From Leptogorgia sarmentosa (lineage: Eukaryota), in assembly GCA_964658305.1 (NCBI GenBank), contig OZ210884.1:1674001-1738000 (forward strand): DNA of 64,000 bases. The letters run 5' to 3'. Every line of letters begins with the position of its first letter. The stretch's first letter is position 1. The notes beneath the pieces are model-generated. The model saw only the letters and a list, made by a program, of their open reading frames with translations. It was not told the origin of the DNA and did not search any database. Positions 27,739-64,000 of the stretch are shown piece by piece. The position numbers and the translations under genes were made by a program.

Positions 27739-27835
27739 GTACGCCATGCAGCTGCGAACCGAACACAGTGGAGAAAGGATGTCCTAGCCTTATGTGCCTC
27801 ATGGCACAAAGAGATTTAAGTTAAGTTAAGTTAAG
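27739..27835 (+). mobile_element. 3' terminal fragment of an RTE-clade non-LTR retrotransposon with a (TTAAG)n tail
   Basis: Translates AAANRTQWRKDVLALCASWHKEI*, matching the RTE ORF C-terminal RxxWRxxVxALC pattern, followed directly by (ttaag)4. Flanked by a ~73-bp direct repeat (27666-27738; second copy split into 27836-27842 and 30124-30191). Confidence 0.75.
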
Positions 27836-27842
27836 TTATTCA

Positions 27843-30903: not shown

Positions 30904-31503
30904 GTTCGAAACTCTCGAAATGGGTCGAATACATCCAAATCCTCAGCGAATATATATCGCCGACGCTTTCATATACGATCGTTGCACAATGAAATTGTAA
31001 CACATGTTTAACGACATCAAAGGCTTCTTCGTATCTTTCATTCGTGAGCATTTCGGATATATGTATCATATCCATTTTTCAGTATACATAACCACAGATG
31101 CAACCACGCAATTTGTGGGTATTTCCGCTGACCAAATGTAAAAATTTACTCGTTGATCTATAAAAATAACTGAATTGATAGAAAATGCTGACCATCATCA
31201 GGGCAAAAATCACACAAAATAGGGTTAGAAAAATGACGATAAAGCACGTAGATATTCTAAATATTACAATTACGTTAACAACATTGTGTGCACTTATTAG
31301 ATTAGCGCTACAACCAACAAACTCGAGATTTCAAAGAATAAACGTTGTTAAACAGCTTGACAAAAACTGTTCGTACAATGATTATGATACCAAAAATCGG
31401 TGTATCGGCTTTTCATTTCCCGAAAATATAGTAGGATTCACTACGAATCCACGCCATCTGTGACCTACAATATTCGCTTTAAAATGAGTGGTTATTTCAG
31501 TTT

Positions 31504-33905: not shown

Positions 33906-33909
33906 AAGC

Positions 33910-35170: not shown

Positions 35171-35172
35171 TA

Positions 35173-35563
35173 ACATAGTTGTTATTTGTCCGGTCACGGC
35201 CATGTACGAGCTTTGGCTATTGGTCCGTGAATTTTTCTGTTTATAATGAATTTTTTACGGAGAGTTTGTGTCGAGCTTCGTTGGTCTAGTGGTTTAGGTT
35301 TGGATCGCCGTGAAACAATTCCCGGGTTCAAACCCAGAGCGCGATGTTCTACCTTTTTTTTAGCTTTGCCTATTTTGCTCTCTTCCCAACATTTTTGCTG
35401 TTAGGGTCTGATTAGAGTTTGGGTTTGGATTAGGGAAAAAAAGAGAGAAAAGACTTTATTTTTTGTTTAGAGTCGGAATTTAGAATTGCCCGCACATAGC
35501 CCGCATTTTCACGGTAAATTGCCAAAGCTCGTACGTGTCCGTGACCGGCAAATAACAACTGCG
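35173..35563 (+). mobile_element. TIR element inserted at TA in a satellite unit; contains a tRNA-like head and TTAGGG-like repeats
   Basis: TIRs agttgttatttgtccggtcacggccatgtacgagctttggc / gccaaagctcgtacgtgtccgtgaccggcaaataacaact; A box tggtctagtgg (35282), B box ggttcaaaccc (35325), a T-run, then gttagggtctgattagagtttgggtttggattaggg. Confidence 0.75.
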
Positions 35564-42148: not shown

Positions 42149-42803
42149 CAGTGGCGGATTAACGATTCATGGGGCCCCTGGCTATTTTTCTGATTGGGCC
42201 CCCAGACCTGGACGCTGCTTTACCTTTCGGCTACATCCAGCTACCTGGCTAGACTGTGGATTTTTTTCTGGAGCTTTTATATCCACATAAACAACAAAAC
42301 AACAAAAAACGTGAAGGTGTTATTGTTTTTAGACTTGATTGAATTAAATAGCTTTCCTGCGAGCTTTTTGCGCAGCAAAAGTGTCGATAAGCTCTTCAAA
42401 ATCAATCCCATTTAAGATTTCATGTTCGATGCTCATGAGCGACAGCTTGCTGAGTCGCTCCTGGCCCATAGTACTCCGCAATGCGTTCTTTATGCGTTTC
42501 AACTTAGAGAAAGAACGCTCTCCACTGCAATTGGAAGCCATCATACAGAGGTAGATCCGGAGTGCAATGTTCACATTTGGAAATGTTTGTATCCAGTCAT
42601 TGTCTTTCAGCAATAAAAACATACCAAGTTCAATTTGGCTTTCTTGTTTTTTAGTAGGGTCAGTGGTGTCTTTGCTCAAATCTACCGATTCTACCTTGAA
42701 CATTGTTTAAAAAATAGTAAGGCGGCCGCGGGCCCCCATGGGACCAGCAAATCTGCGGGCCCCTGGCTGTAGCCCAGTCAGCCCCCCCCTTAATCCGCCA
42801 CTG
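42149..42803 (-). mobile_element. Internally deleted hAT transposon
   Basis: TIRs cagtggcggattaa / ttaatccgccactg; 8-bp TSD gtaagagg (42141-42148 and 42804-42811). Confidence 0.95.
42344..42703 (-). pseudogene. hAT transposase C-terminal dimerisation-domain fragment
   Basis: FPNVNIALRIYLCMMASNCSGERSFSKLKRIKNALRSTMGQERLSKLSLMSIE. Confidence 0.92.
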
Positions 42804-42846
42804 GTAAGAGGTCATTTCTCTGTTTTCAAGAAACACAACCAGAATC

Positions 42847-43042
42847 ATGGACAGAAGTGCCGTTATGCGTCTCGTGATTTTCATAGCCCTGAATTATTTC
42901 ACAGTTCAAGTCTTTTGTCAACAAGGGAGGTGCTTGGGATCAAATAACTACTGTCTTGGTCAACTTGGCGACACGAAGGCAGTTTGTAAAAACGGCTCCT
43001 GCTACTGTACTGGCAAAGACTATGATTATAATACATGCTTGC
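42847..43042 (+). CDS. Receptor gene exon 1: signal peptide + Cys module 1
   Basis: MDRSAVMRLVIFIALNYFTVQVFC-QQGRCLGSNNYCLGQLGDTKAVCKNGSCYCTGKDYDYNTCL; donor gtaagt. The ORF track reads through the 90-nt intron that follows. Confidence 0.88.
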
Positions 43043-46000
43043 GTAAGTTGTCTTGTAAAAACGTTTTTTCCGTCTACATAATGTCATTTCACTTTCTCTT
43101 GTCTACCACTGAATCTAAATTTCTCACCCTAGCTGATGCATATGGATGTAAAATTGTTGCAAATTCTGATACCACGTACACTTGTACTCCCGATAACAGT
43201 TCACCAAAGTACGAGATTCACGTACTAGCTGTGTACAGGGCTACCAGCGGACGTCCTTCAACAGCTGCCAAGGCCAGTGTCGACATCATCAGTCCTGAAA
43301 AATCCAACAGACCAATTATACTTGTTCTCAGTAGCTTCGAAGCTGTGAATTGGGTTCTTAATATACCATCTCACACAACTATCGCAAAAGTAATCCTGGT
43401 TAGTACAGTATGGTCAGAGGCGTAGCGAAGGGTATACATTTGGGGGGGAGGGGTTGCGAGATTAGTTTTTGGGGACAAAAGGGCGTAGCTACGGCGTGGT
43501 TTGGGCGTGAATGAACTACACCATAATTATTTTAATAAAGAATTATACGATATATAATTGGTTGAGAGTGAGAACTATTTATTTTCAAAATACGCGAAAC
43601 AATTTCTTAAAATACATGCTAAAATATTAGGTCTCAAAGTTTTGAGAAATAGCATGTTCACTCAAGCCACCTATACACTTCACACTCACATTGGCGACAA
43701 CAAGTTTCATGTGTCCACGGACATGTCGATGATATTAAGCCTTTGAGTAAGGTAGTGCCGTCATGTCTATTTTGTTTAAGAGGACATTTTTTCTAACACG
43801 CAAAAACCGAAATCTTTTTGGCTTCTCAAAATGAAATTTTTCTATGATTATTTTCTGGATGGAACAGTTTGCTACTTGGCAAACCGCGTTTGGGGTTTCT
43901 GAAAGTTAAAGGAATATTAAAATTAAGAGCGTCAATGTGCGTATGACCGACGCAACCATGCAATTGGAAGAATTTGTTTATAACCGTGCATTGAAGTAAT
44001 ATTTCAACCTGATTTTCCATTGGGCGTACTCTCCAAAATCTTTTTACTTTGGTTTGATATCATAATTTATGAAGCCATTTAAGTTAGTCTGACATGTGAG
44101 AAACCTGAAAATTCAAAATATTATGAATTTTCATAATCTTGAGTATTGAGCGCGAAATACGTGCATGGAGAAAATTTTCGTCTTAGCTGACGAGTTTGCC
44201 GTATCAATGATAAACGCATCTTGCCGGAGATTCTCCTATGACTTTGCAGTGTTTTCATTTTGATTGTTATTATTACAATGTTTTAACTTACCATTCCTAC
44301 CACCCAATGGTATATTTATTATTCTCAATATACAAATTTAAAAATGTAATTCTCAACAATATGAGTATATACATTCTCTTCTTTATATTAAAATGGTAAT
44401 GTTGAAATGCAGGAATATGTATTTGTTATTGGTTTCTGTACTTGAAAATTGACGAATTTCCTATCCTTAATTTTTCATGTTATTATTTTTTGTAGGTGGC
44501 TTACGACATATTAGAAAGTTCGGTCAGCGGTAACGTCAGTCGAGTGAAAAATGTTGAACGAATTGGAATAAAGAACTCCGAGTGGTCTTGTGGATACGGG
44601 AGTGATTTAGTTGGATGCCATACAGTTAAGAATTTGAAGTAAGGAAATAATTAATCTCAGTGCCGGCCCGTCCATTTTCATGTTGGGGGGTATAATATAA
44701 ATTATTATATGGCTGACATAAATGGCGCACGCTTATTGGTTGATTAGCGGTCCGGAAAAAGTCATCTTGCCCGCTCAGGAAAGTCATCTTGCCCGCTCAG
44801 GAAAGTCATCTTGCCCGCTTGTGAAACTATTATACAAATTAAATTTTTAAGGAAACTAAATCTTATTATGCCGTACGGTGACGTTGAAGAACACTCCCCG
44901 ATTGAATTTTGCTGTCCCAGAAAAACACACGATCCAAAATGCTGAGTTTCAAAGTGAAAATAACGGCGAACAAAACAACTTACAGTTCGAAAACTGTTGC
45001 GAACATTGTTTTCACAGCACTTAAATGGCTTCATTTCGCATCGAACATTTGTTGTTTATCACGACATTTACATTATATTTTTTTATTCAATTTTTTCCTT
45101 TGTTGTATTTTTATTGTTTTGTTGTTGTACAGCAGTGAACGGCCAGAAACCGCCATTCAGTATGCCAGTGTATACGGCTGAACGTTTCAGCAGCGAAAGT
45201 GTTTTCTAGTTCTTTCTACAATGTCAGAACAAATTGCGATCGAACAAAGCCATATAATAAATCCCTTATTAACCTCGTTTGCTCGGTCTGTACGGGAAAG
45301 TATTGCCTTCGGTTTTTAACGCACTGACCTCGCTCCTTCGTCGCTCGGTCTGTACGAAAACCCTCAGGCAATACTTTCCCGTACAGACCTCGCACTCGGT
45401 TAATAAGTCCTTAATATAGAACCATAAATAAAATGCACCATAAAATGCAAAATTCTTAGTGTTAAAACCGATTGCGACATTTAGTTGAAGGTGCGTCAGC
45501 ATATATGTTATTTGCTCTTTTTTGCGTCAACCTTGCGCCGTTTATTTACATGACAATCGACAAATGAATTCACATGTTGAAATTTAATGAAGAACTATTA
45601 CGCGATGCAAAGAAATGAGTCGGACCCAGAATATATCAGGGCCGTATTAAGTTTCTCAGGGTCAGCGGCATTCGGTGAAGTTTAACTAGGGGCCACGTAT
45701 ATGTTCAGCTAACCGTACTATTGTGTTTATCTAGAAAGAATTAAAAGGTCACTATATGCCATATTACTTGGGAGGGGGGGTTAATACTCTCTTGCCGCCC
45801 CCTCCGGTCGCGCTGGCCCTGATTAATCTAGGATGTGCTAATCAGGGAAACAGTTGATACTCATTAGTTATCATGCAGTTAAGTTGGAATACGTTCATGA
45901 CATTCAATTGCATGTAAATGTTACAGGCAATTTGCTCAACAACATATCTTTTGCTTGTTTTTGGATAAAAATTATTCAAAGGCACCGTATTACGTAACAG

Positions 46001-49000
46001 TATAAAAAAATGATGAAGACCTCTTTTCGGGCGAGGAGCAAACCATATTTGTGGTACATCTTGGCCATCTTTTAACCAGTTTCAAACGATTTCAAAATTT
46101 TATAATGACTTGCTTTCAACCAAAAACCACGCTTTTGTCTTTCTTCTTCAACTATAGTCGTTTTTTAATGTTGAAAATGGGTAAAATCTAGAAAGATTCC
46201 GATGTAACAACAAAGAGGTTAATCCTATTAATTAACCGAGAAAGCCGAGAAAGCGAAAAAAATAATAGAATACATTTTAAGAGAAGCTGAGAGACGAGAT
46301 CAAGTACTTACATGTAATTCAGTGCAAAATAAAACTTTATTGCAATACACAGCGTGCAAGAGGAGGCGGCTATTAATATTTCATGGGCGGTATACTGTCC
46401 ATTATTTCTCCCCATAGATCCTATGACTTTTTCATTTTTTGCAATATATAATTTTTTAGTGCGAAATTATTGAACAATTTTCTTCTGGATGATTAAGTTA
46501 TAAAAGGATTTATTATGGATGATATTGCAAAATTTTCACCTTCGTTGCGTTTTTTTATTTGCCAGACAAATTCATAAAAGTTTTGGAGTAGTGACTTCAT
46601 TCCAAGGTACTTACGAGAAAAGCCAATGGTCTTTGGAGTTATCCGCTTTTAACGGGAGTGTAAACAATGGTAGGTTTAGTCAGCTATATACCCACAGCTC
46701 GTTGCATTTATTATTTTGAGCTTTATACTTTTATACGGATGTCGAACCTTATTAGACAGTAGGCTATAGTTGTTTTTGCCCTGCTTTTAGAAGATTGTGG
46801 CGAAGTCAACAGTAGAACATTCAACATCGACCGACCGGTCCATAATAATACAATTATTTACCGTCCATTGAAAGAATAAAATTGGTGTGCGCGCAAGCGC
46901 CGGAATTGAAAAGTTCAAAGGAAAAACATATCTGCACTTTTTCCTAGTCGAAACGTAGTTTTGTTTGAAAATTCAACTTTGACACTTAGCTATATAACAA
47001 AAGTTTTATTTACTGAAACATAGGTGAACAGTAAGTATCGACTGTGCAGTATCCTCCAGTACGGATCGAAGTCACACAGTCAATAACAATTAATTATTTA
47101 ATTTATGCATGGCAAGCACTTGTTTTGAGGAATGGCGCGATCTGATTGGCTGCTTCCAGGGCAAAATTTTCCCGTATTGCCGATTGGCAAAACGGAATTT
47201 TTTCTGCCCTGCCAAGAAAACAAACACAGAAACTTTAAAATTGAGGAAATTTTATTTAATAAAGTATAAAAGATTAAAATGAGCGACGAGGAGTATTTTG
47301 AGAGCGAGTTTTATTACCCAGAGGTTGACAATGAAGGATACGAACCGTTTTTTGTCAGTTTAAATTTGAGATCATTTTGAAACGCACATATGCCTTATAA
47401 TAAAAAACTTACTGACTTCCAATGCTCGGGCTGTACGGGAAAGTATCAAACCTCAGTTTGATATTTTCCCGCAAAGCCCTTACTCTACGTCAGTAAGTTA
47501 TTATTTATCAATGCAGCGAATTGACAGTATTGCTTTTCCATAAGAACATCATTTGTATAATATATGAAAAAATATTTTGCGAATTTGTTTTTCAGGTACG
47601 AGCATAAACACATCTATTCTTCCAACGGTTTGGTCAAAGGTTCGAAGACAGAAATGCTTGGGCGACTATTGTCTAGGGGAATATAATGACATGAAAGCTG
47701 TTTGCAAAGACGGATACTGCTACTGCAATGGAAAAGATTACGATTACGATACTTGTTTGCGTAAGTTCACACCAGGTCATGGTTTTAATTTAAATCAGTG
47801 AATTAATTGAATTGTAGGGGGGAATTTACATTTTCTATAGAACATTTTGGTTTTATGTTATGTGAACAAGAATATAAGATAGTTCCCCCTCTTTCCTTTA
47901 CCGCTAAGTGTTGTGCCTATTACATAACTGTATTAACTTCAGGTAATGAGGTGCATCTATCTGGTCCTATCTCAAGCCAAAAAAATTAATATCGAAAAGG
48001 TTTTAATTTTGAAAAGAATTTAACATGAGAACAACATGAAGCAAGACAATAGATGAATATGGAATGAACGTGACAAGAAAATCAAAAGAAAATCTCATGA
48101 ACATCTCATGAACGTATAGGAAATTCGTAAAATGATCGAAAATTTCCTATGATATTAAGAAGCTAGTACGGGCTGTTTCCCGGACTTGGCAATTTTATCT
48201 ATTTCATCTGCCAACATTATTATCCAAGATAATTAGGCAAGGTACAATTTGTTTGACACATTTGCAATCTTTTGTAAAGTGTTCGTATTACCACACTGTA
48301 AATCTGGCAGTGTTGTGACAACACCAAAAAAGTGTAAACATACACTGATTAGGTGTAAATTGAAACTTTACACCGTTTAAAGTAATATTACATTATTGCT
48401 GTGTACTTCGACACCACCTCAGTGTACAAGTAACACTGCTTTAGTGTGAAGCAAGGAAATACCTTGCTGACACTTATTTTTGTGTAAACTTACACCAAAG
48501 TGTGCATGTGAGATAAAATATGTACACTGTGAGAGTGTGAATACCCACCTGTTTAGTGTAAAATGTAGAACACTCTTTTGAGTGTAAGTTTACACTTCGC
48601 ATAGTGCAAAATTACACCAACGACAAGTTAAACTATTAGTCTAAAAATTATCATTATATTATTATTTATTACTTATTTAGTGTAAAATTACACATAACCT
48701 TGTTAATATACACTTTTAACAACTCAATATACAGTCATGTGGTGTAAACGAACACCAGGAACCAAAGTATAGTTTCCCTTGCTGTGGTGTAATTGTACAC
48801 AGTTTTTTTCCATGTTAATTATATCTGAATTCGAAGTTTCCTACAGGACTACACATAGGAATTAATTTTCCTGTAGGAATTCCACTCGAGTATTTCGCAG
48901 CCCGGGTTGGGGAAGTAATTTCGCGGTGAAAAACTCCCAACGCGAAAATTGAAATTTCCACTGTTTCGCAACCAATAATTCAACAAATCAATATGGAAGA

Positions 49001-52000
49001 CATGAACGAAGAGATTTTTGTAATAGCGCTTCGAAAAGGGTCTCGTAGTCGCAGTAATTTATTACCCGTTATAATATTAGTAGGGTAAAATCTGCAACGT
49101 GATTGGCTAATGAGCGTTCATTATAACAGCGTAATGCACGCATCTAGCTGTTAAATTTCTCCCGCGATTCTTTGGTTTGACAAAAAGACAATAAAAATAC
49201 ATATATACTAAAAATACATCCATAAAAAACGCTTGAATTGTTTGCTTTCGCTCAGCTAAAGGAATAAAGCTGTGTTGCTGCTTGGCAACATTTGAGAACA
49301 CGCTTGATTACATGTGAAGAGAATTGTAATTTTGATCTTCCTAACGAAGTTTTTTGTTGCGCTAATATTCTCTTATATTATAAAAGAAATAGATAACGAG
49401 TCGCGTGCCATTATGCTGTTGTAATTGCACTCGGGCAATGTTGTGAGAATACTCGAGAATCGCGTAAAACACTCGGCTACGCCTCGTGTTTTACGCGATT
49501 CTCTCGTATTCTACCAACATTTCCTTGATGCATTATAACAGCATAATGGCACGCGACTCGTTATCTATTTCTTAATTATTACCTATAAATAATATTAGTC
49601 CTTCAATAATTGAGATCAGTAGCTATGCTTTACCATATTTGGGTACCCATGCATTGCCCAAAAATTTGCATGTCATTTCCACTAAGACGTTTCAGAAGAG
49701 TGCGTCTAGGAGTTTTTCTCTTTTTAGCGTTAGGTAAAATTCTTTTCAGAATACCTTTTTCTTGGGTATTTAATGAGTATTCAACATCCGCTTCTTCGGT
49801 CACTTGAACGCCTCGTGACACCGTAACACTTGAATAAACAATTTTCTTTCCCCTAGCTGATGCTTATGGATGTAAAATTGTTGCAAATTCTGATACCACG
49901 TACAATTGTACTCCCGATAACAGTTCACCAAAGTACGAGATTCACGTACTAGCTGTGTACAGGGCTGTGTACAATTCAACAGCTGCCAAGGCCAGAGTCG
50001 ACATCATCAGTCCTGGAAAATCCAACAGACCCATTGTACTTGTTCTCAGTAGCTACGAACCTGTGAATTGGGTTCTTAATATACCATCTCACACAACTAT
50101 CGCAAAAGTAATCCTGGTTAGTACAGTGTGGTCAGAGGCGTAACGAAGGGTATACATTTGGGGGGGAGGGGGAGGGGGGGGGGGTTGCGAGATTAGTTTT
50201 TAGGGGACAAAAGGGCGTAGCTACGGTGTAGTTTGGGCGTGGACGAACCACACCATAATTATTTTAATAAAGGATTATACCATATATAATTGGTTGAGAG
50301 TGAAAATAGCATGTTCACTGAATAGCATGTTCACTCAAGCCACCTATACACTTCACACTCAGATTGGCGACAACAAGTTTCATGTGTCCACGGACATAGT
50401 GGATGATATTACGCCTTTGAGTAAGGTAGTGCCGTCATGTCTATTTTGTTTAAGAGGATTTTTTTTCTAACACGCAAAAACCGAAATCTTTTTGGCTTCT
50501 CAAAATGAAATTTTTCTATGATAATTTTCTGGATGAAACAGTTTGCTACTTGGCAAACCGCGTTTGGGGTTTCTGAAAGTTAAAGGAATATAAAAATTAA
50601 GAGCGTCAATGTGCGTATGACCGACGCAACCATGCAGTTGGAAGTATTTGTTTATAACCGTGCATTGAAGTAATATTTCAACCTAATTTTCTATTGGGCG
50701 TACTCTCCAAAATCTTTTTACTTTGGTTTGATATCATAATTTATGAAGCCATTTAAGTTAGTCTGACATGTGAGAAACCTGAAAATTCAAAATATTATGA
50801 ATTTTCATAATCTTGAGTATTGAGCGCGAAATACGTGCATGAAGAAAATCTTCGTCTTAGCTGATGAGTTGGCCGTATCAATGATAAACGCATCTTGCCG
50901 GAGATTCTCCTATGACTTTGCAGTGTTTTCATTTTGATTGTTATTATTACAATGTTTTAACTTACCATTCCTACCACCCAATGGTATATTTATTATTCTC
51001 AATATACAAATTTAAAAATGTAATTCTCAACAATATGAGTATATACATTCTCTTCTTTATGTTAAAATGGTAATGTTTAAATGCAGGAATGTGTATTTGT
51101 TATTGGTTTCTGTACTTGAAAATTGACGTATTTCTTATCCTTAATTTTTCATGTTATTATTTTTTGTAGGTGGCTTACGACATATTAGGAAGTTCGGTCA
51201 GCGGTAACGTCAGTCGAGTGAAAAATGTTGAACGAATTGGAATTCAGAACTCTGAGTGGTCTTGTGGATTCGGGAGTGATTCAGGTGGATGCGATACAGT
51301 TGAGAATTTGAAGTAAGGAAATAATTAATCTCTGTGCCGGCGCGTCCATTTTCATGTTGGGGGGTACAATATAAAATATAGAACCGCAAATAAAATGCAC
51401 CATAAAATGCAAAATTCTTAGTGTTAAAACCGAATGCGACATTTAGTTGATGGTGCGTCAGCATACATGTTATTTGCTCTTATTTGCGTCAACCTTGCGC
51501 CGTTTATTTACATGACAATCGACAAACGAATTCACAAGTTGAAATTTAATGAAGAACTATTACGCGATGCAAAGTCGGACCCAGAATATATCAGGGCCGT
51601 ATTAAGTTTCTCTGGGTCAGCGGCATTCGGTGAAGTTTAACTAGGGGCCAGGGATATGTTAAGCTAACCGTACTATTGTGTTTATCTAGAAAGAATTAAA
51701 AGGTCACTATATGCCATATTACTTGGGAGGGGGGTTAATACTCACTTGCCGCCCCCTCCGGTCGCGCTGGCCCTGATTAATCTAGGATGTGTTAATCAGG
51801 GAAACAGTTGATACTCATTAGTTATCATGCAGTTAAGTTGGAATACGTTCATGACATACAATTGCATGTAAATGTTACAGGCAATTTGCTCAACAACATA
51901 TCTTTTGCTTGTTTTTGGATAAAAAAATTTGAAAGGCACCGTATTACGTAACAGTATAAAAAAATGATGAAGACCTCTTTTCGGGCGAGGAGCAAACCAT

Positions 52001-55000
52001 ATTTGTGGTACATCTTGGTCATTATTTAACCAGTTTCAAACGATTTAAAAAATTTATAATGACTTGCTTTCAACCAAAAACCACGCTTTTGTCTTTCTTC
52101 TTCAACTATAGTCGTTTTTTACTTTAGTCGTTTTTCAACTACACTATTGTGATGAGTGGGGAAAATTCACATCAGTCATCGAGTCATCGAGTCATCGAGA
52201 CATCGAGTCATCACTCATCGAGTCATTCAGTCATAGTGTAAACTCCGGGGGGAGCGTCCCAATTTCTCTTGATGTGCGAAACTCCGTAGTGTACCGATGT
52301 CCTTTCAATTTTTAAGCAGAAATTATCCAATTGTAACGTTATACTATTGTTCATCATTATTTGCAGCTATTCGTATGGATAAGAAATTTAACTAGGGAAG
52401 TAATGTAATCTAAGATGCCTCGAGTTATAGTACACAATGCCGCAAAGCCCCTCCGGAATTTGGATTTTTGCGAAAATTGCAACTCAGCACGTGTTCGTGG
52501 GATGAAATATTTGTGTAATACAATATGGCGGACGCTAAGGAGTGCGACATTGAATCAGTAATGTGGCCAAGTTTCAACAATGTTTGAACATGTTGCCAAA
52601 GCGGTTAAAATGTTATTTGAATATCTGCGATGAATCTAGAAAACAAGTAAGGGTTGTCATGAACAAAAATAGCCATAGCCCATACTATCAACTGCTGCCG
52701 TGGATATTATAAATCTGCATACATTTTTAGTTTGCCGTCTTTAATTTTAAAACCATAATTTTAACGTGTTTGTTTCCATTTGTTCTCGCCATAGTCTCGG
52801 CCTAGCGGTTATGGAAATATTCCCATTCATGTACTCCCAATGTAAAAGAATAATTTACTACAATCAAATTCAGCCAGTTGCTCGCTTTTGCCTTGTAATA
52901 TATTTTAGTCGACTAAATAGACGACATGATTCATGATCATACTGATAGAAAATAGTCAACAGGACAACAGCTTCAGTAAGCTTGGGTTGCTTGTCTAGAT
53001 TCAATTGTTTACATGATTAGTGGCGGCGACTCAGGGATTCTTCAATTTCGCAGCAAGTAGAATTAACTATATATGTAGGCGAAGAAAAGTAAATTTAACG
53101 TTGGCCTAAAATTGTGAGTAGACTGAATTTCCATTACTACGCAGAGGTAGCCTACAGGTTGTACATTTGTTGAGTACTGCATAATCGCCCGTTCGTTGTT
53201 ACACTCCATTTTATTATTATAACGCGTGAAGGTCAGAGGTCAGAGAATCAACAAAATAATGTCGAGCACGCGAAATTTGAACGTGCGTATTTCCTTTTTT
53301 GGCTATAAAATCTTTTAAATTATTTTATTATACTACATCAAGCTTTTCTTTGAGCTGATGTTACATGGAATGATTTTTTAACGGCAATTCGAATCACAAC
53401 AGGGCCGAACAGGCCGCCAAGCGACACCAGCTTTTGCTCGATATCTTCGTAGAAACTTTGCACTATCCTTGGATTCCTAGTTAATGTTGAAAATGGGTAA
53501 AATCTAGAAAGATTCCGATGTAACAACAAAGAGGTTAATCTTATTAATTAACCGAGAAAGCCGAGAAAGCGAAAAAAATAATGTGAATACATTTCAAGAG
53601 AAGCTGAGAGACGTGACCAAGTACTTAGATATCATTCAGTGCAAAATAAAACTTTATTGCAATACACAGCGTGTAAGAGAAGGCGGCTATTAATATTTCA
53701 TGGGCGGTATACTGTCCATTATTTCTCCCCATAGATCCTATGACTTTTTCATTTTTTGCAAGATATTATTTTTTAGTGCAAAATTATTCAACAATTTTCT
53801 TCTGGATGATTAAGTTATAAAATGATTTATTATGGATGATATTGTAAAATTTTCAACTTCATTGCGTTTTTTTATTTGCCAGACAAATTCATAAAAGTTT
53901 TGGAGTAGTGACTTCATTCCAAGGTACTTTCAAGAAAAGCCAATGGTCTTTGGAGTTATCCGCTTTTAACGGGAGTGTAAATAATGGTAGGTTTAGTCAG
54001 CTATATACCCACAGTTCGTTGCATTTATTATTTTGAGCTTTATACTTTTATGCAGATGTCGAACCCTATTAGACAGTAGGCTATAGTTGTTTTTGTGCTG
54101 CCTTTGTTTTTGCGAAGATTGTGGCGAAGTCTCCATTTTATTATTGTTCTTATTATTTCCGTTGCGATGACAGAATCGGTCAACAGTAAACTTTCATCAT
54201 CGACCGACCGGACCATAATAATACATTTATTTACCGTCCATTGAAACAGTAAAATTGGTGTGCGCGCAAGCGCCGGAAATGAAAAACATATCTTGCTTCA
54301 AAGGAAAAACATATCTGCTTGGTTTCCTAGTCGAAACGTGATTTTGTTTGAAAATTCAACTTTGACAATTAGCTATATAACAAAAGTTTTATTTGCTGAA
54401 ACATAGGTGAATAGTAAGTATCGACTGTGCAGTATCCTCCAGTACGGATCGAAGTAACTCTGTGAATAACAATTAATTATTTAATATATGGCAAGCATTT
54501 GTTTTGGGGAAGGGCGCGATCTGATTGGCTGCTGTCAGGGCAAAATTTTCCAGTATTGCCGACTGGCAAAACGGATTTTTTTCTGCCCTGCCAAGAAAAC
54601 AATCACAGAAACTTTAAAATTGAGGAAATTTTATTTAATAAAGTATAAAAGATTAAAATGAGCGACGAGGAGTATTTTGAGAGCGAGTTTTATTACCCAG
54701 AGCTTGACAATGAAGCATACGAACCGTTTTTTGTCAGTTTAAATTTGAGATCATTTTGAAACGCACATATGCCTTATAATAAAAAACTTACTGACTTCCA
54801 ATGCTCGGGCTGTACGGGAAAGTATATCAAACCTCAGTTTGATATTTTCCCGCAAAGCCCTTACTCTCAGTCAGTAAGTTATTATTTATCAATGCAGCGA
54901 ATTGACAGTATTGCTTTTCCTTAAGAACATCATTTGTATAATATATGAAAAAATATTTTGCGAATTTGTTTTTCAGGTACGAGCGTAAACACATCTATTC

Positions 55001-58000
55001 TTCCAACGGTTTGGTCAAAGGTTCGAAGACAGAAATGCATGGGCGACTATTGTCCAGGGGAATATAATGACATGAAAGCTGTTTGCAAAGACGGATACTG
55101 CTACTGCAATGGAAAAGATTACGATTACGATACTTGTTTGCGTAAGTTCTCACCTTGTCATGGTTTTAATTTAAATCAGTGAATTAATTGAATTGTAGGG
55201 CGGGGGAATTTACATTTTCTATAAAACATTTTGTTTTTATGTTATGTGAACAAGAATATAAGATAGTTCCCCCTCTTTCCTTTACCGCTAAGTGTTGTGC
55301 CTATTACATAACTGTATTAACTTCAGGTAATGAGGTGCATCTATCTGGTCCTATCTCAAGCCAAAAAAATTAATATCGAAAAGGTTTTAATTTTGAAAAG
55401 AATTTAACATGAGAATAACATAAAGCAAGACAGTACATGAATATGGAATGAACGTGACAAGAAAATCACAAGAAAATCTCATGAACATCTCATGAACGTA
55501 TAAGAAATTCGTAAAATGATCGAAAATTTCCTATGATATTAAGAAGCTAGTACGGGTTGTTTCCCGGACTGGGCAATTTTATCTATTTCATCTGCCAACA
55601 TAATTATCCAAGATAATTAGGCAAGTTACAATTTGTTTGACAATCTTTCTTTTGCAATCTATGCTTTACCATATTTGCGTACCCATGAGGCAAACATTTG
55701 CATGTCATTTCTACTAAGACGTTTCAGAAAAGTGCGACTAAGAGTTTTTCTCTTTTTTGCGTTAGGTAAAATTCTTTTCAGAATACGTTTTTCTAGGGTA
55801 TTAAATGAGTATTCAACATCCGCTTCCTCGGTCACTTGAATGCCTCGTGACACCGTAACACTTCAATAAACAATTTTCTTTCCCCTAGCTGATGCTTATG
55901 GATGTAAAATTGTTGCAAATTCTGATAGCACGTACACTTGTACTCCTGATAACAATTCACCAAAGTACGAGATTCACGTACTGGCTGTGTACGCGGCTAC
56001 CAGCGGACGTCCTTCAACAGCTGCTAATGCCAGTGTCGACATCATCAGTCGTGGAAAATCCAACAGACCAATTATACTTGTTCTCAGTAGCTCCGAAGCT
56101 GTGAATTGGGTTCTTAATATACCATCTCACACAACTATCGCAAAAATAATCCTGGTTAGTACAGTAAGGTCAGAGGCGAAGCGAAGGGTATACATTTGGG
56201 GGGGGGGGGGGGGGTTTGCGAGATTAGTTTTTGGGGTCAGAAGGGCGTGGCTACGGCGTGGTTTGGGCGTGGATGAACTACACCATAATTATTTTAATAA
56301 AGGATTATACGATATATAATTGGTTGAGAGTGAGAACTATTTATTTTCAGAATACGGGAAACAATTTCTTAAAATACATGGTAAAATATTAAGTCTCAAA
56401 GTTTTGAGAAATAGCATGTTCACTTAAGCCACCTATACACTTCACACTCAGATTGGCGACAACAAGTTTCATGTGTCCACGAACATAGTGGATGATATTA
56501 CGCCTTTGAGTAAGGTAGTGCCGTCATGTCTATTTTGTTTAAGAGGACATTTTTTCTAACACGCAAAAACCGAAATCTTTTTGGATTCTCAAAATGAAAT
56601 TTTTCTATGATTATTTTCTGGATGGAACAGTTTGCTACTTGGCAAACCGCGTTTGGGGTTTCTGAAAGTTAAAGGAATATAAAAATTAAGAGCGTGAATG
56701 TGCGTATGAGCGACGCAACCATGCAGTTGGAAGAATTTGTTTATAACCGTGCATTGAAGTAATATTTCAACCTAATTTTCTATTGGGCGTACTCTCCAAA
56801 ATCTTTTTACTTTGGTTTGATATCATAATTTATGAAGCCATTTAAGTTAGTCTGACATGTGAGAAACCTGAAAATTCAAAATTTTATGAATTTTCATAAT
56901 CTTGAGTATTGAGCGCGAAATACGTGCATGGAGAAAATCTTCGTCTTAGCTGATGAGTTTGCCGTATCAATGATAAACGCATCTTGCCGGAGATTCTCCT
57001 ATGATTTTGCAGTGTTTTCATTTTGATTGTTATTATTACAATGTTTTAACTTACCATTCCTACCACCCAATGGTATATTTATTATTCTCAATATACAAAT
57101 TTAAAAATGTAATTCTCAACAATATGAGTATATACATTCTCTTCTTTATGTTAAAATGGTAATGTTTAAATGCAGGAATGTGTATTTGTTATTGGTTTCT
57201 GTACTTGAAAATTGACATATTTCTTATCCTTAATTTTTCATGTTAATATTTTTTGTAGGTGGCTTACGACATATTAGAAAGTTCGGTCAGCGGTGACGTC
57301 AGTCGAGTGAAAAATGTTGAACGAATTGGAATCAAGAACTCCGAGTGGTCTTGTGGATACGGGAGTGATTCAGATGGATGCCATACAGTTAAGAATTTGA
57401 AGTAAGGAAATAATTAATCTCAGTGCCGGCGCGTCCATTTTCATGTGGGGGGTACAATATAAAATATAGAAATGGTGATATCACGTGTTTTGTGTCGCGC
57501 CATAAAATGCAAAATTCTTAGTGTTGAAACCGACTGCGACATGTAGTTAAAGGTACGTCAGCATACATGTTATTTGCTCTTTTTTGCGTCAACCTTGCGC
57601 CGTTTATTTACATGACAATCGACAAACGAATTCACAAGTCGAAATTTAATGAAGAACTATTACGCGATGCAAAGAAATGAGTCGGACCCAGAATATATCA
57701 GGGCCGTATTAAGTTTTTCTGCGTCAGCGGCATTCGGTGAAGTTTAACTAGGGGCCACGGATATGTTCAGCTAACCGTGCTATTGTGTTGTTATAGAAAG
57801 AATTAAAAGGTCACTATATGCCATATTACTTGGGAGGGGTGGGGGGGTTAATACTCACTTGCTGCCCCCTCCGGTCGCGCTGGCCCTGATTAATCAAGGA
57901 TGTGCTAATCAGGGAAACAATTGATATACTCATTAGTTATCATGCAGTTAAGTTGGAATACGTTCATGACATTCAATTGCATGTAAATGTTACAGGCAAT

Positions 58001-61000
58001 TTGCTCAACAACATATTTTTTGCTTGTTTTTGGATAAAAATTATTCAAAGGCACCGTATTACGTAACAGTATAAAAAAAATGATGAAGACCTCTTTTCGG
58101 GCGAGGAGCAAACCATATTTGTGTTATATCTTGGCCATCTTTCAACCCGTTTCAAACGATTTCAAAAATTTATAATGGCTTGCTTTCAACCAAAAACCAC
58201 GCTTTTGTCTTTCTTCTTCAACTATAGTCGTTTTTTAATGTTGAAAATGGGTAAAATCTAGAAAGATTCCGATGTAACAACAAAGAGGTTAATCTTATTA
58301 ATTAACCGAGAAAGCCGAGAAAGCGAAAAAATAATTTGAATACATTTTAAGAGAAGTTGAGAGACGAGACGAAGTACTTAGATATCATAGAGTGCAATAC
58401 ACTGCGTGTAAGAGAAGGCGGCTATTAATATTTCATGGCCGGTATACTGTCCATTATTTCTCCCCATAGATCCTATGACTTTTTCATTTTTTACAATATA
58501 TTATTTTTTAGTGCAAAATTATTGAACAATTTTCTTTTGGATGATTACGTTATAAAATAATTTATTGTGGATGATATTGTAAAATTTTCACCTTCATTGC
58601 GTTTTTTTATTTGCCAGACAAATTCATAAAAGTTTTGGAGTAGTGACTTCATTCCAAGGCACTTTAAGGAAAAGCCAATGGTCTTTGGAGTTATCCGCTT
58701 TTAACGGGAGTGTAAACAATGGTAGGTTTAGTCAGCTATATACCCACAGTTCGTTGCATTTATTATTTTGAGATTTATATACTTTTATACAGATGTCGAA
58801 CCCTATTAGACAGTAGGCTATAGTTGTTTTTGTGCTACGTTTGTTTTTGCGAAGATTGTGGCGAAGTCTCCATTTTATTATTGTTCTTATTATTTCCGTT
58901 GCGATGACAGAATCGGTCAAGAGTAAACATTCATCATCGACCGACCGGTCCATAATAATACATTTATTTACCGTCCATTGAAACAGTAAAATTGGTGTGC
59001 GCGCCAGCGCCGGAAATGAAAAACATATCTTGCTTCAAAGGAAAAACATATCTGCTTGGTTTCCTAGTCGAAACGTGATTTTGTTTGAAAATTCAACTTT
59101 GACAATTAGCTATATAACAAAAGTTTTATTTGCTGAAACATAGGTGAATAGTAAGTATCGACTGTGCAGTATCCTCCAGTACGGATCGAAGTAACTCTGT
59201 GAATAACAATTAATTATTTAATATATGGCAAGCATTTGTTTTGGGGAAGGGCGCGATCTGATTGGCTGCTGTCAGGGCAAAATTTTCCAGTATTGCCGAC
59301 TGGCAAAACGGATTTTATTCTGCCCTGCCAAGAAAACAATCACAGAAACTTTAAAATTGAGGAAATTTTATTTAATAAAGTATAAAAGATTAAAATGAGC
59401 GACGAGGAGTATTTTGAGAGCGAGTTTTATTACCCAGAGCTTGACAATGAAGCATACGAACCGTTTTTTGTCAGTTTAAATTTGAGATCATTTTGAAACG
59501 CACATATGCCTTATAATAAAAAACTTACTGACTTCCAATGCTCGGGCTGTACGGGAAAGTAAGTTTTCCCGCAAAGCCCTTACTCTCAGTCAGTAAGTTA
59601 TTATTTATCAATGCAGCGAATTGACAGTATTGCTTTTCCTTAAGAACATCATTTGTATAATATATGAAAAAATATTTTGCGAATTTGTTTTTCAGGTACG
59701 AGCGTAAACACATCTATTCTTCCAACGGTTTGGTCAAAGGTTCGAAGACAGAAATGCATGGGCGACTATTGTCCTGGGAAATATAATGACATGAAAGCTG
59801 TTTGCAAAGACGGATACTGCTATTGCAATGGAAAAGATTACGATTACGATACTTGTTTGCGTAAGTGCTCACCTTGTCATGGTTTTAATTTAAATCTCTG
59901 AATTAATTGAATTGTAGGGCGGGGGAATTTACATTTTCTATAGAACATTTTGTTTTTATGTTATGTGAACAAGAATATAAGATAGTTCCCCCTCTTTCCT
60001 TTACCGCTAAGTGTTGTGCCTATTACATAACTGTATTAACTTCAGGTAATGAGGTGCATCTATCTGGTCCTATCTCAAGCCAAAAAAATTAATATCGAAA
60101 AGGTTTTAATTTTGAAAAGAATTTAACATGAGAATAACATGAAGCAAGACAATACATGAATATGGAATGAACGTGACAAGAAAATCACAAGAAAATCTCA
60201 TGAACATCTCATGAACGTATAAGAAATTCGTAAAATGATCGAAAATTTCCTATGATATTAAGAAGCTAGTACGGGATGTTTCCCGGACTTGGCAATTTTA
60301 TCTATTTCATCTGCCAACATAATTATCCAAGATAATTAGGCAAGTTACAATTTGTTTGACAATCTTTCTTTTGCAATCTATGCTTTACCATATTTGCGTA
60401 CCCATGAGGCAAACATTTGCATGTCATTTCTACTAAGACGTTTCAGAAAAGTGCGACTAAGAGTTTTTCTCTTTTTTGCGTTAGGTAAAATTCTTTTCAG
60501 AATACGTTTTTCTTGGGTATTAAATGAGTATTCAACATCCGCTTCCTCGGTCACTTGAACGCCTCGTGACACCGTAACACTTGAATAAACATTTTTCTTT
60601 CCCCTAGCTGATGCTTATGGATGTAAAATTGTTGCATATTCTGATACCACGTACACTTGTACTCCTGATAACAGTTCATCAAAGTACGAGGTGCATGTAC
60701 TGGCTGTGTACAAGGTTATCAACAGACGTCCTCCAACAGCTGGTGATTCCAACGTCAATATCATCAGTCGTGGAAAATCCAACAGAGCTATTGTGCTAGT
60801 GCTTGGCAGTTACGAACCTGTAAACTGGATTCTCGATATCCCTTATAATATTTCCATTAGCAAAGTTATACTGGTTAGTAGCTATACACAAATACATTGC
60901 CAAAATAAAATTAAGGCTTATTAACCTAGTACGAGGTCTGTACGGTAAATTATTGCCTGAGTGTTTTCGTGCTAACAATTGCAAACCGAGCGACGATGGA

Positions 61001-64000
61001 GGTACGTGCGTTAAAAACCGAAGGCAATGCGAAAACGGATTTATTACATCGCTTTGTTTTAACTTTGTAGAAAAAACCAGAAAATATTTTGGCTTGTGGA
61101 ACTTTCAGCCGTATACATGCACTTGCATACTGCATGGCGGTTTCATTGCTGTAAAAGAACAAAACAATAAACATGCATAATGCATAGTGCAAAGGAAAAT
61201 AATTTATAATGTAAATGTTGTGATAAACAACAAACGTTCGATGCGAAATGAAGCCATTAAATGCTGTGAAAACAATGTTCGCAACATTTTTCGAACTGTT
61301 GCTTTGTTCGGCGTTATTTTCATTTTAAAACTTAGCATTTTCGGTCGTTTGTTTTTCTGGGACAGTAAAATTCTACCGGGGAGTGTTCTTCATCGTCACG
61401 GTACGGCATAATAACATTCTGTTTCCTTAAAAAAAATATTTGTACAGTAGTTTCATGAGCAGGGAAGATGAATATGCGAGCGGGCAAGATGACTTTCCTA
61501 AGCGGGCAAAATCACATTTTCCAGTCCTCTAATCGACCAATCAGCGTGCGCCATGCATTTATTTCAGCATATAATAAACCTAATTCTGTTGTGACCTTGC
61601 ATTTGTAAAATTATTATAATTATGTGCTTATACGGCTTTTCCCAGGTCATGCACAACTGTAGTTACTTTCCTTGGTGTTTTTAAATCGAACTTGCTGAAT
61701 TACTACTCTGTATCGTTGAACATTGATAATTACAATCTTGAATACTCCTGAACATTTAAGATTATATGTTTAAAAATTAATGTGATTGTGTTGGTAGCCT
61801 TTCACGTCCGATATTGTGTTGTTGTATAATATTTCGACATTTTAAAATGATTATTTCCCTTTATTATAATCAAATACACAATCTACCTTCCTTTGGGACA
61901 TCCAAGAAACATTCACAACAAAATAGCGACAACATAGCTACTTATTGAAGTTTATATATTTATTAAACTTAATTGCAATTATGTTGTATATGGCAGTTGT
62001 ATATGGCAGGGCTAACACAACAGTATTACATCAATTACTGTGGACCTTTTAACTTCTCCAACATAAATTGATTTTCGAACTTAAATAAAAACAGAAATAT
62101 AATACAACCGAAAATCAGAAAAATCTCACATCAATCTCGGCACTCGATGATTTAAAATGCCTAAAATGCAAACGTCAGTCGAGATTTCGAGTTAGATATT
62201 TCGAGTTAGATACATGTTCGCCACATTCACAGTTCACAATAGGGGGACTTATAGCTACGACAAAATAACTCGCGACTTTGAATCACACAAGATGCGACTA
62301 TCGTCCGACCTAAACACGCCTATATAGCCTAAACGGTATAAAATGCGTGCATGCGTGTCTTGGCTAGACAGTCTCGTATAAATACACCAAAATGGTCAAA
62401 GATGCATCGCGACATATTTACTATTTTATTTTTAAAAGTACGTTGTTTTCAACATTGGTGGAAGTAACATGTTGTAGGCCAATGTGGGCGGGCTCTTTTG
62501 ATCGGACGAACTATACCTTAATTTAATACAAGCAAACTAACCTGGTCTAAAATCATCTCCATTTCATTTGAACAATCCGGTGGTTATTCCTGCTATGTTT
62601 TTTTTGTTCTTTAGGTTTCCTATTACATTCATGAAAGTTCTGTCGGTGGTGACTTAAGTCGAGTGAAAAGTGTCGAACGAAAGGGAACGAGAGACTCGGA
62701 TTGGGATTCAGGATACGGTAGTGACTCGGGTGGCGGCGGGACAGTGGGGATGCTAAGGTAGGTAAAACGATCATTTGAAACATTTTAGTCCATAGATATA
62801 TGTTATTTACCGGCTGGGAGGTCCGTACGGACCGACCTAAACGGTGAAAAATAGATTTATTTTTCTCTCCTCGATGTTATGATAAAATTCGTCAAAAATT
62901 CCAGTGTTGCGTAGTAGATTTTGAGATCAGTTTGTTTGTTTACTTTGCTACTCAATCGCAAGTATGGCTGCTGAACAGCCAAGACGAAGTGAGAAAAAAC
63001 CCTTCAATATTTAGACGCATTTTCTTCAATATTCACGCTCTTTCACTCAAAATTAAAATGAAAAAGGTGGACTTATTAAAATTATTTATTTTCCTGGTCG
63101 TTTCACGATACAAACATGGGTAAAATACGCTTTAGACACCGAAATATTTCGCCGAGAATGTTTTGTTTTGTTGCCATTCTGATGAGACGTGTTTTTGTCG
63201 CTGTAAATACCCCCGAAATAACCCTTAGCATAATAAAATGAACTTTCATGTGTTCTTTATCGCCTAAATTCGTTTTGAATGTTTTAATAAGCGGCCATTC
63301 AATTTTAAAAAAACAAAAACATTGACTATATTTCTATTTAATCTACGAGAATGCGAGCCGTCCGTACGTAGGATACGGACCTCTCGCCAACCAATCAGAA
63401 AGCTCTATTTAGGTTACGAACCTGGAAAAAAATAATTTATGATATTATAGAATGTTCATATTAATTATGTGATGCGAATTGCCAAATCTTCCATATTCAT
63501 TGCTTATTTTTACTCGCTAGACAAATCGACAAACGATTTGGTGTCGTTACATCATTCCAAGGCACTTACGTATCCAATCGATGGTCAATTGAATTGTCTA
63601 ATGATACTAATGTTGGTAGGTTTGTCTAGATGTTTTCAATTTTTTTTCACCCCCTAAATTGTTTTTAGTGTTTATGGTGAGACTGTTGAGACTGTGAGGT
63701 GTAATTATAAGGGAATTATAATTAGTAAAACAGATTAAACGTTCGCTGACCAAGATGCCCTTGTTGTCCCTTGTTGTCGTTTTAGAGCTTTGGGCATGTG
63801 TGGATGCGTCGATGTCTCTGTGTTGTACCACAGAAATGTTTCAGTCTTTCTTTATATTTAATTAATACGCTCCTTTCAAAGGCTCCATAATTAATATGTA
63901 GCTATATACCCAATATCTTCATATAGCTACAGCTCAAGGAAGTTCTCCAACGCCGGCGTCGTCCTCAAACAGCAGCATCGAGATCGTTGTAGGAATCACA
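42847..64000 (+). CDS. Multi-exon gene (at least 17 exons, at least 934 aa): signal peptide + 4 x [6-Cys module + beta-rich domain] + S/T stalk + start of probable TM helix; 3' end outside the window
   Basis: All exons listed below are bounded by GT/AG, phase-compatible (1,0,2,1 cycle) and stop-free; they sum to 2802 nt. Confidence 0.88.
43133..43398 (+). CDS. Receptor gene exon 2 (module 1)
   Basis: ccctag|PDAYGCKIV...EIHVLAVY...RPIILVLSSFEAVNWVL...KVIL|gttagt. Confidence 0.9.
44496..44638 (+). CDS. Receptor gene exon 3 (module 1)
   Basis: tttgtag|VAYDILESSVSGNVSRVKNVERIGIKNSEWSCGYGSDLVGCHTVKNL|gtaagg. Confidence 0.88.
44701..45412. mobile_element. Crypton-like insertion found only in duplication unit 1
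   Basis: Absent from units 2 and 3 (empty site ggtacaatataaaatatagaa). Has the ttattatatggc / gccatataataa pair and a terminal hairpin (ggtctgtacgggaaagtattgcct / aggcaatactttcccgtacagacc); no TSD seen. Confidence 0.75.
46566..46669 (+). CDS. Receptor gene exon 4 (module 1)
   Basis: ttgccag|QIHKSFGVVTSFQGTYEKSQWSLELSAFNGSVNN|gtaggt. Confidence 0.88.
47596..47760 (+). CDS. Receptor gene exon 5 (linker + Cys module 2)
   Basis: tttcag|TSINTSILPTVWSKVRRQKCLGDYCLGEYNDMKAVCKDGYCYCNGKDYDYDTCL|gtaagt. Confidence 0.88.
48270..49620. mobile_element. Composite insertion found only in unit 1: ACAC/GTGT-rich element (~48290-48805) plus an element ending in a 190-bp hairpin (49384-49573)
   Basis: Absent from the paralogous introns at ~55650 and ~60370; hairpin arms are aagaaatagataacgagtcgcgtgccattatgctgtt and its reverse complement. 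Confidence 0.75.
49857..50116 (+). CDS. Receptor gene exon 6 (module 2)
   Basis: Paralog of exon 2 with an in-frame net 6-nt loss (VYRAVYNST); AG/GT intact. Confidence 0.88.
51170..51312 (+). CDS. Receptor gene exon 7 (module 2)
   Basis: Paralog of exon 3: ...IQNSEWSCGFGSDSGGCDTVENL. Confidence 0.88.
52121..53480 (+). mobile_element. Helitron/Helentron-like non-autonomous insertion found only in unit 2
   Basis: Inserted in the T-run of gtcgttttttaatg; (agtcatcg)n microsatellite near the 5' end; ends with the small hairpin atccttggat and CTAG; no flanking TSD. Confidence 0.6.
53883..53986 (+). CDS. Receptor gene exon 8 (module 2)
   Basis: Paralog of exon 4: ...FQGTFKKSQW... Confidence 0.88.
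54977..55141 (+). CDS. Receptor gene exon 9 (Cys module 3)
   Basis: Paralog of exon 5; AG/GT intact. Confidence 0.88.
55889..56154 (+). CDS. Receptor gene exon 10 (module 3)
   Basis: Paralog of exon 2; AG/GT intact. Confidence 0.88.
57259..57401 (+). CDS. Receptor gene exon 11 (module 3)
   Basis: Paralog of exon 3: ...SCGYGSDSDGCHTVKNL. Confidence 0.88.
58618..58721 (+). CDS. Receptor gene exon 12 (module 3)
   Basis: Paralog of exon 4: ...FQGTLRKSQW... Confidence 0.88.
59696..59860 (+). CDS. Receptor gene exon 13 (Cys module 4)
   Basis: Paralog of exon 5; AG/GT intact. Confidence 0.88.
60608..60873 (+). CDS. Receptor gene exon 14 (module 4, diverged)
   Basis: ...EVHVLAVYKVINRRPPTAGDSNVNIISRGKSNRAIVLVLGSYEPVNWILDIPYNISISKVIL|gttagt. 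Confidence 0.9.
60912..61577. mobile_element. Crypton-like element; inverted, diverged sibling of 44701-45412
   Basis: Reverse-complement similarity, e.g. gctgtgaaaacaatgttcgcaaca and gagcgggcaagatgactttcct. Confidence 0.7.
62615..62757 (+). CDS. Receptor gene exon 15 (module 4)
   Basis: ctttag|VSYYIHESSVGGDLSRVKSVERKGTRDSDWDSGYGSDSGGGGTVGML|gtaggt; same 143-nt length as exons 3, 7 and 11. Confidence 0.9.
62795..63440. mobile_element. Crypton-like element of the same structural class
   Basis: ttatttaccggctgggaggtccgtacgg start and ccaaccaatcaga near the far end. Boundaries approximate. Confidence 0.5.
63521..63615 (+). CDS. Receptor gene exon 16 (module 4)
   Basis: cgctag|QIDKRFGVVTSFQGTYVSNRWSIELSNDTNV|gtaggt. 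Confidence 0.88.
63927..64000 (+). CDS. Receptor gene exon 17 (partial): S/T/P stalk and start of probable TM helix
   Basis: catatag|ATAQGSSPTPASSSNSSIEIVVGIT, phase-compatible with exon 16. Confidence 0.7.

Follow-up and report, generated by a model that had tools for sequence, protein, structure and literature searches.

Triplicated modules of a predicted orphan-domain fold in a Leptogorgia sarmentosa gene: exon divergence at about the intron rate, with suggestive focal replacement

In snake-venom PLA2 and conotoxin genes, the exons of duplicated secreted proteins outpace their conserved introns, with a large excess throughout the gene, and in abalone VERL the tandem repeats exchange sequence. 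In Hydractinia, the allorecognition proteins Alr1 and Alr2 have an immunoglobulin (Ig) fold, are transmembrane and show extreme allelic polymorphism (PMC9546547, available text). The orphan domain of the TGF-beta co-receptors betaglycan and endoglin is described in the available text of PMC5464963 as a parallel beta-helix, and the available part of PMC11865472 gives a loop of betaglycan orphan domain 1 (OD1) as the main TGF-beta contact. Here, we compared these systems with a gene for a repeat protein in Leptogorgia sarmentosa (assembly GCA_964658305.1, contig OZ210884.1, positions 1,674,001 to 1,738,000). This whole stretch of 64,000 nucleotides (nt) is called the window, and positions are counted from its first letter. 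An earlier note on this DNA had claimed that duplicated exons of the gene diverged faster than their introns, mostly by amino-acid replacement, and had ascribed this to diversifying selection on a ligand-binding surface, as in immune or allorecognition receptors.

The gene has one open frame on the + strand from 42847, with 16 exons in the translation and GT-AG boundaries at every intron (Table 1). A leader and a Cys-rich domain are followed by four rounds of A, B and C exons with D exons between the rounds; exons A, B and C together encode one domain, and exon D encodes a linker and a Cys-rich domain. The gene extends beyond the window end, and the stop codon is not reached in exon 16. Self-BLAST showed three units with 91–97% identity, introns included, from about 43127 into exon 14, and module 4 could be aligned with units 1–3 in exons only. 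Because the first ~60 nt of exon 14 (A4) resemble units 1–3, the duplication breakpoint probably lies inside this exon.

We counted variable sites in four exon and four intron classes of units 1–3. Before this three-way count, we removed the private insertions (712, 1362 and 1354 nt), all intron columns lying 3 nt or less from a gap, and 18 exon columns of a complex event. Variable sites were found at 40/660 exon and 213/3744 intron positions (P = 0.72). Thus, the exons diverge at about the intron rate overall, not faster, and the general claim of faster exons fails. The counts on which the claim was built were confirmed: 9 of the 143 nt are different between exons 3 and 7, with 7 nonsynonymous and 2 synonymous changes, and the 400 nt of intron upstream of them show 9 differences (Fisher P = 0.029 against the exon). 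This upstream stretch is quiet and unrepresentative, because the intron median is 14 differences per 400 columns. Between units 1 and 2, a count of 9 differences or below is reached in only 18% of 400-column intron stretches, and at least 9 differences are found in 23% of those with 143 columns. When exons 3 and 7 were compared with all unit 1/unit 2 introns (153/3893), the difference was not significant (P = 0.19). The 7:2 ratio of replacement to silent changes is also unremarkable, because site counts of about 3:1 predict the same.

For whole units, the p-distances of exons and introns were 4.2% and 3.9% for units 1/2 (P = 0.75), 4.2% and 4.4% for units 1/3 (P = 0.84), and 5.6% and 2.9% for units 2/3 (P = 0.001), the three pairs being mutually non-independent. 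The last pair is the only one with an exon excess. The excess weakens to P = 0.011 once the complex block of exon 6 is excluded, and it leans partly on two near-identical introns (1.1 and 1.6%). The ratios of nonsynonymous to synonymous differences per site (pN/pS) were 1.24, 0.82 and 0.79 for units 1/2, 1/3 and 2/3, respectively. A codon model was fitted to 220 of the 225 codons (five in the complex block were excluded) and scaled on intron branch lengths. In this model, the replacement rate was 1.13–1.16 times the intron rate (95% range 0.78–1.57) and the silent rate was 1.3–1.4 times the intron rate. The ratio of nonsynonymous to synonymous rates (dN/dS) among the three units, a check that the earlier note had proposed, was about 0.85 and does not support exon-wide acceleration. 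Amino-acid-variable codons numbered 26/220, against 25.7 expected from simulated neutrality at the intron rate. Unlike in the venom genes, where the exon excess is gene-wide, exon and intron rates are equal overall in this gene. The apparent pattern was mostly a sampling effect, and the locus does not add to the known cases in which exons outrun introns.

In comparisons with module 4, dN/dS was 0.33–0.40. Because dN/dS among the three units is 0.85 by contrast, the constraint on modules 1–3 is weak; these modules are far less constrained than the history of their family predicts. Of 79 family-conserved residues, modules 1–3 keep 62–65, module 4 keeps 71 and most full-length homologue modules keep 72–78. 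Outside the hot codons described below, the replacement rate was 0.106 per codon, against 0.134 under neutrality (about 0.8 of the intron rate). The frame and splice sites are intact in 16/16 exons, and the only exon indel is in frame, against 16–23 indel events per intron comparison.

Sequence motifs (HVL-VY, S-E--NW, G-G-D--G--T and SF-G) place the gene in an invertebrate family, bearing PF26060, in which a Cys-rich domain precedes an orphan module. The accession, which we take to be the TGFBR3/endoglin N-terminal domain, comes from precomputed columns for the homologues; our own Pfam scan of six window stretches of the gene returned no family. The closest named relatives are Paramuricea clavata proteins (68–80% identity per module), whose modules form one clade with those of the window (support 100/99), and coral relatives show 51–71% identity to exon 2. 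The closeness to P. clavata suggests an octocoral-like host. The homologue search gave 98 matches near module length, and the profile search reached 804 cluster representatives at E ≤ 0.001, the best 150 of which were listed. Ten relatives that we looked up include those of sponge, mollusc, hemichordate, amphioxus and the myxobacterium Chondromyces crocatus, so that the family ranges from myxobacteria to amphioxus. The homologues share the module layout and exon breaks of the window gene, and module repeats also occur in Porites and Oculina. In many of the 55 relatives scanned, the module is combined with lectin, SRCR, Sushi, WAP, trypsin, antistasin, TSP1 or TARSH_C domains; a combination with ZP was not found in any of them. 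Several have a hydrophobic C-terminal tail, which by analogy suggests surface anchoring. While these homologues retain VYE, SYEP, GSDxGGG and GTY, modules 1–3 depart from the family repeatedly, with several motif residues substituted, and the conserved Glu of VYE is missing in all four window modules.

A word-based scan of prokaryote genomes, with patterns from the Cys-rich part, gave 36 pattern matches and no relatives, although the profile search did reach the Chondromyces protein. A metagenome scan gave 2 distant loci among 597 candidates, which were of no use as outgroups. Outside subscription journals, which our search did not cover, we found no relevant paper on the domain in corals or cnidarians. 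The public names of three relatives, P0003, P0008 and P0019 (myosin light chain kinase-like, GPCR Fz/Smo), mismatch their content and look mis-annotated.

In models of homologues, the module has the predicted fold of the betaglycan/endoglin orphan domain, which is parallel beta-helix-like with a single long helix. The model of a stretch of P0003 matched betaglycan (6MZN) with Z = 15.6 (root-mean-square deviation 2.7, 153 aligned; next unrelated structure, Z = 3.8). The model of P0008, with a predicted local distance difference test score (pLDDT) of 86.8, gave Z = 14.6 with betaglycan (next unrelated structure, Z = 4.0), and the homologue models gave Z = 11.4–11.5 with the endoglin orphan domain. 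Foldseek matched the betaglycan/endoglin orphan domain at E 1e-5; the profile match to 9FDY was weak (E 0.008). A phmmer search of P0006 against the PDB gave no match, and the ESM Atlas gave no usable match, its own model having a pLDDT of 0.32. In the profile alignment, the variable loop after the first long strand falls on the betaglycan OD1 loop. Because the fold is described as a parallel beta-helix (PMC5464963, available text), the Tyr turns of successive rungs would stack on one edge of the helix. The module aligns to betaglycan chain residues 30 to 359 in the OD1 strand order, with OD2 skipped.

The window module family and betaglycan/endoglin share this predicted fold but only 15–21% identity. 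Betaglycan and endoglin contain an intertwined OD1/OD2 pair, whereas each module of the window gene contains a single domain, preceded by a linker and a small Cys-rich domain. They also carry a C-terminal ZP domain and transmembrane helix, whereas no ZP was found in the window or in the 6 + 55 homologues scanned, the C-terminus of the gene lying beyond the window. Furthermore, the Tyr/Glu/Asp motif set of the module, which is common to a myxobacterial protein, sets the family apart from both. Modules 1–3 also have a Cys pair (positions 119 and 128) around the GSD loop, at 44589–44618 and its equivalents in exons 7 and 11. It is absent from module 4 and from close coral homologues, but about 24% of the 104 family domains have it, bacterial-like domains among them. 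This pair is likely to form a new loop disulfide.

We then considered where the replacements fall, numbering residues from the Asp of DAYGC. The four motif series quoted in the earlier note (GSD, QGT, SSxEx and VYxxx) are all present in the translation. Its view that changes cluster at the same positions holds beyond chance under most null models, not under all, and the VYRAT/VYRAV difference is one local repeat plus 6-nt loss event, not several substitutions. Four codons have three different residues (67 F/Y/S, 126 V/G/D, 151 Y/F/L and 152 E/K/R; P = 0.007 under neutrality). Of 220 codons, 6 show three distinct triplets, a higher share than in intron triplets (about 9/1231; P = 0.017). The 12 codons starting at four family-conserved Tyr (33, 67, 90 and 151), each at or just past a strand end, hold 9/31 replacements and no silent change, and four random 9-nt intron windows, with the real intron clustering retained, reach nine changes with P = 0.004. 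With a wider after-strand definition, 9/31 replacements fall in 18 codons (P = 0.0006). Three of the four triple-residue codons are positions 91–95% conserved in 22 close homologue modules. Across 104 family domains, conservation is 81% for E34, 78% for Y67, 66% for P69, 60% for G126 and 66% for Y151; in four other repeated or paralogous module sets, variation at positions 34 and 67 is confined to one set, and position 151 is invariant in all four. Judged by the family sequences, F/S67, V/D126, F/L151 and A/R34 appear to be derived residues. In a grid fit of site models (M2a/M1a), also proposed in the earlier note, a class with omega > 1 was supported when calibrated on introns (P = 0.03) and not on a free scale (P = 0.13–0.14).

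We propose, with a probability of roughly 0.5, that the gene encodes a multivalent extracellular binder of at least four orphan-fold modules, in which modules 1–3 stem from a recent triplication, diverge at about the intron rate and have had a few residues of the likely ligand-binding edge changed by selection. Unequal crossing-over between A exons would have made the three units. Redundancy after the triplication would then have relaxed purifying selection on modules 1–3, while patchy exchange among the units may have turned them into mosaics. On one edge of the beta-helix, the strand-end Tyr/Glu turns would come together with the GSD loop, and selection may have favoured new side chains there, giving each module a different or weakened specificity. 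The external ligand would most likely be a glycan or a microbial or mucus component. A TGF-beta-family ligand is possible; it seems less likely because the motif set is common to bacteria and neither the two-domain clamp nor ZP was seen.

Relaxed constraint alone could explain much of this, and we regard it as a serious, though not the favoured, account. Redundant modules would drift, and multinucleotide mutations, slippage, conversion and hindsight would produce apparent hot spots. The equality of exon and intron rates overall, the single event behind VYRAV and the free-scale site test agree with such drift. Several further observations weigh against selection at the hot codons. Under constrained nulls, the four triple-residue codons reach only P = 0.05–0.09, and codons with at least two changes show no excess over intron triplets (7/220 and about 23/1231, P = 0.20). 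The enrichment depends on how the hot set is drawn: the 12-codon Tyr set was chosen in hindsight, after the list in the earlier note; a strict after-strand definition on the better model holds 3/31 replacements (P = 0.17); and merging neighbouring changes into events, by judgement, leaves 5/27 (P = 0.014). Variable positions are not enriched among family-conserved ones overall (8/79 against 14/81, P = 0.25), and variable residues mapped on the predicted structure are not enriched in coil (P = 0.26). The modelled structures are those of two homologues, P0003 (a stretch, pLDDT 69.4) and P0008, to which the window modules are 68–80% identical, not of window modules, and the clustering tests compare three unit sequences only. 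Adjacent variable pairs are equally common in introns (30/213) and exons (6/40), and within any 60 nt, at most 12 variable sites occur in introns and at most 8 in exons. The available text of 10.1101/165969 warns that multinucleotide mutations mimic selection signals. Since introns and exons here do not differ in how often changes are neighbours, which is the condition of that warning, a false signal is possible.

However, drift alone does not readily account for intact frames and splice sites with a single in-frame exon indel, nor for triple-state codons that exceed an intron-based expectation in which real clustering is included, three of them at positions that close homologues conserve. Site-focused selection on top of relaxed constraint is therefore likely, although the signal is suggestive rather than proof. 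As to diversifying selection on a ligand-binding surface, the proposal has moderate support: conserved motif residues are hit, one loop falls on the ligand-binding loop of betaglycan, and the class with omega > 1 is favoured on the intron calibration, though not significantly on a free scale.

Gene conversion limited to exons, with module 4 or paralogues elsewhere as donors, would import old variants that the introns cannot receive; this account is improbable. At two-state sites in exons A–C, the minority base equals that of module 4 at 13/30 sites, in all three partitions (7/4/2 for units 3/2/1), while module 4 differs at 24% of invariant sites. Several minority residues equal those of Paramuricea clavata paralogues, and the X7 and X14 contigs show related yet different copies of the gene. 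However, exact runs with module 4 around 15 such sites span 1–27 nt, mostly 11 or fewer, in tracts that carry none of its other differences, which rules out conversion of whole tracts from module 4. Many of the module 4-like sites could be ancestral states kept on local trees that exchange among the units has reshuffled, and the new residues F/S67, V/D126 and F/L151, which are rare in the family, are left unexplained by conversion. The introns likewise switch unit grouping, and exon C groups units 2 and 3 as the next intron does. From exon A to exon C, the partitions were not significantly clustered (64/162 adjacent pairs, compared with 55 in shuffles; P = 0.08).

An immune or allorecognition receptor accelerated along all its exons, of the Hydractinia Alr kind, is very improbable. 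The exon excess in units 2/3 and an extracellular repeat protein in a colonial cnidarian-like genome would suit it, and like Alr1/Alr2 this is a cnidarian extracellular repeat-domain protein with focal amino-acid change. However, the excess is confined to one of three pairs, where the near-identical introns contribute, and silent sites show as great a rise as replacement sites; together, the three-way count, the dN/dS of 0.85 and the single pair in excess speak against an exon-wide accelerated gene. The analogy drawn in the earlier note is also loose in structure: Alr1/Alr2 have V-set/I-set Ig domains, whereas the window modules have the orphan fold in homologue models, and the C-terminus is beyond the window. 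Contigs of other samples are about 1–2% from single units (the 40 listed of 309 differences), and collapsed contigs among them mix alleles and units. The gene works like other duplicated recognition modules with focal change, and is neither betaglycan/endoglin proper nor an Alr gene.

That divergent alleles were wrongly assembled into three units is hardly credible: parts of units 2 and 3 are only 1.1–1.6% apart, no contig spans the array and some unit-specific stretches are nearly uncovered in other samples, but the A-B and B-C introns differ by 3.1–5.1% among all three units, which means three haplotypes, above the diploid number, units 1 and 2 are marked by private insertions, and other corals have multi-module homologues too.

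Contig junctions support the splice model. X7 contigs bridge 43042 to 43133 over a GT..AG intron and also join B to C to D; an X14 contig, from a relative about 90% alike, shows A joined to B. X7 and X14 are not on record as RNA, and their contigs may stem from close paralogues. Intron 1 (43043–43132) is 90 nt long, in frame and stop-free, so that exons 1–2 form one open reading frame (ORF) of 192 codons; the spliced form is present in X7, and retention would add 30 residues. The 712-nt insertion of unit 1 has a depth of about 1000 in DNA runs X4/X6. A 76%-like inverted relative of this insertion (44702–45415) lies in the intron after exon 14 (60910–61577). The B-C intron stretches 45469–46802 (unit 1) and 50805–52138 (unit 2) have almost no X4/X6 contig cover, and the unit 3 equivalent is covered; either copy-number variation or contig collapse may explain this.

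Table 1. Exons and private insertions of the repeat-module gene, in window positions.
Feature	Position	Strand	Remarks
Exon 1 (D1)	42847..43042	+	start codon, hydrophobic signal-peptide-like leader, small Cys-rich domain; leader resembles that of named homologues
Exon 2 (A1)	43133..43398	+	module 1, putative orphan-fold domain, first half; hot codons 43237-43239, 43336-43344
Exon 3 (B1)	44496..44638	+	GSD loop, helix start; hot codons 44607-44621
Unit 1-private insertion, 712 nt	44701..45412	.	high-copy in DNA runs; likely mobile element
Exon 4 (C1)	46566..46669	+	final strands; hot codons 46612-46617
Exon 5 (D2)	47596..47760	+	module 2 Ser/Thr-rich linker and Cys-rich domain
First D-A intron-private insertion, 1354 nt	48269..49622	.	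partly high-copy
Exon 6 (A2)	49857..50116	+	6 nt shorter, in frame; loop ~49967-49975 replaced via local repeat-plus-deletion event
Exon 7 (B2)	51170..51312	+	translation
Unit 2-private insertion, 1362 nt	52119..53480	.	high-copy
Exon 8 (C2)	53883..53986	+	translation; B-C and C-D junctions in X7 contig
Exon 9 (D3)	54977..55141	+	translation
Exon 10 (A3)	55889..56154	+	translation
Exon 11 (B3)	57259..57401	+	translation and contig evidence
Exon 12 (C3)	58618..58721	+	translation
Exon 13 (D4)	59696..59860	+	translation and contig evidence
Exon 14 (A4)	60608..60873	+	older module 4
Exon 15 (B4)	62615..62757	+	translation; A-B junction of ~90%-like relative in X14 contig
Exon 16 (C4)	63521..63615	+	translation; gene continues past window

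Elsewhere in the window, a single-exon ORF of 742 codons at 18974–21202 (+) has a C-terminal CHAT domain (PF12770, E 1e-45), and a 712-codon ORF at 27825–29963 (+) reads by eye like the reverse transcriptase of a non-LTR (long terminal repeat) retrotransposon. Two adjoining tandem arrays at 31489–35174 have related units with periods of about 119 and 94 nt in opposite orientation. Just upstream of the start codon of the gene, a C-terminal fragment of a hAT transposase (PF05699) lies between inverted ends at 42148–42810 (-). A 296-codon ORF at 7795–8685 (-) has a hydrophobic N-terminal stretch and no Pfam match.

According to the available text of PMC5464963, OR1 was proposed to derive from OR2 by duplication and circular permutation, and that text names no close single-domain relative. 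Stand-alone domains of this kind, which occur in sponges, corals and myxobacteria, may help to tell which of the orphan subdomains is the ancestral one. A bolder view, which we think rather unlikely, is that the stand-alone domains, as the likely ancestral form of the betaglycan/endoglin orphan region, are undescribed invertebrate recognition modules, whose edge, conserved from myxobacteria to amphioxus, went hypervariable here right after the triplication, so that three modules of the protein gained new specificities and the fourth kept the old one. The hot spots are candidates for binding residues of a widespread domain family, and one conserved module beside three altered ones in a single protein amounts to a built-in experiment. 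The family also bears on the origin of the orphan domain of the TGF-beta co-receptors.

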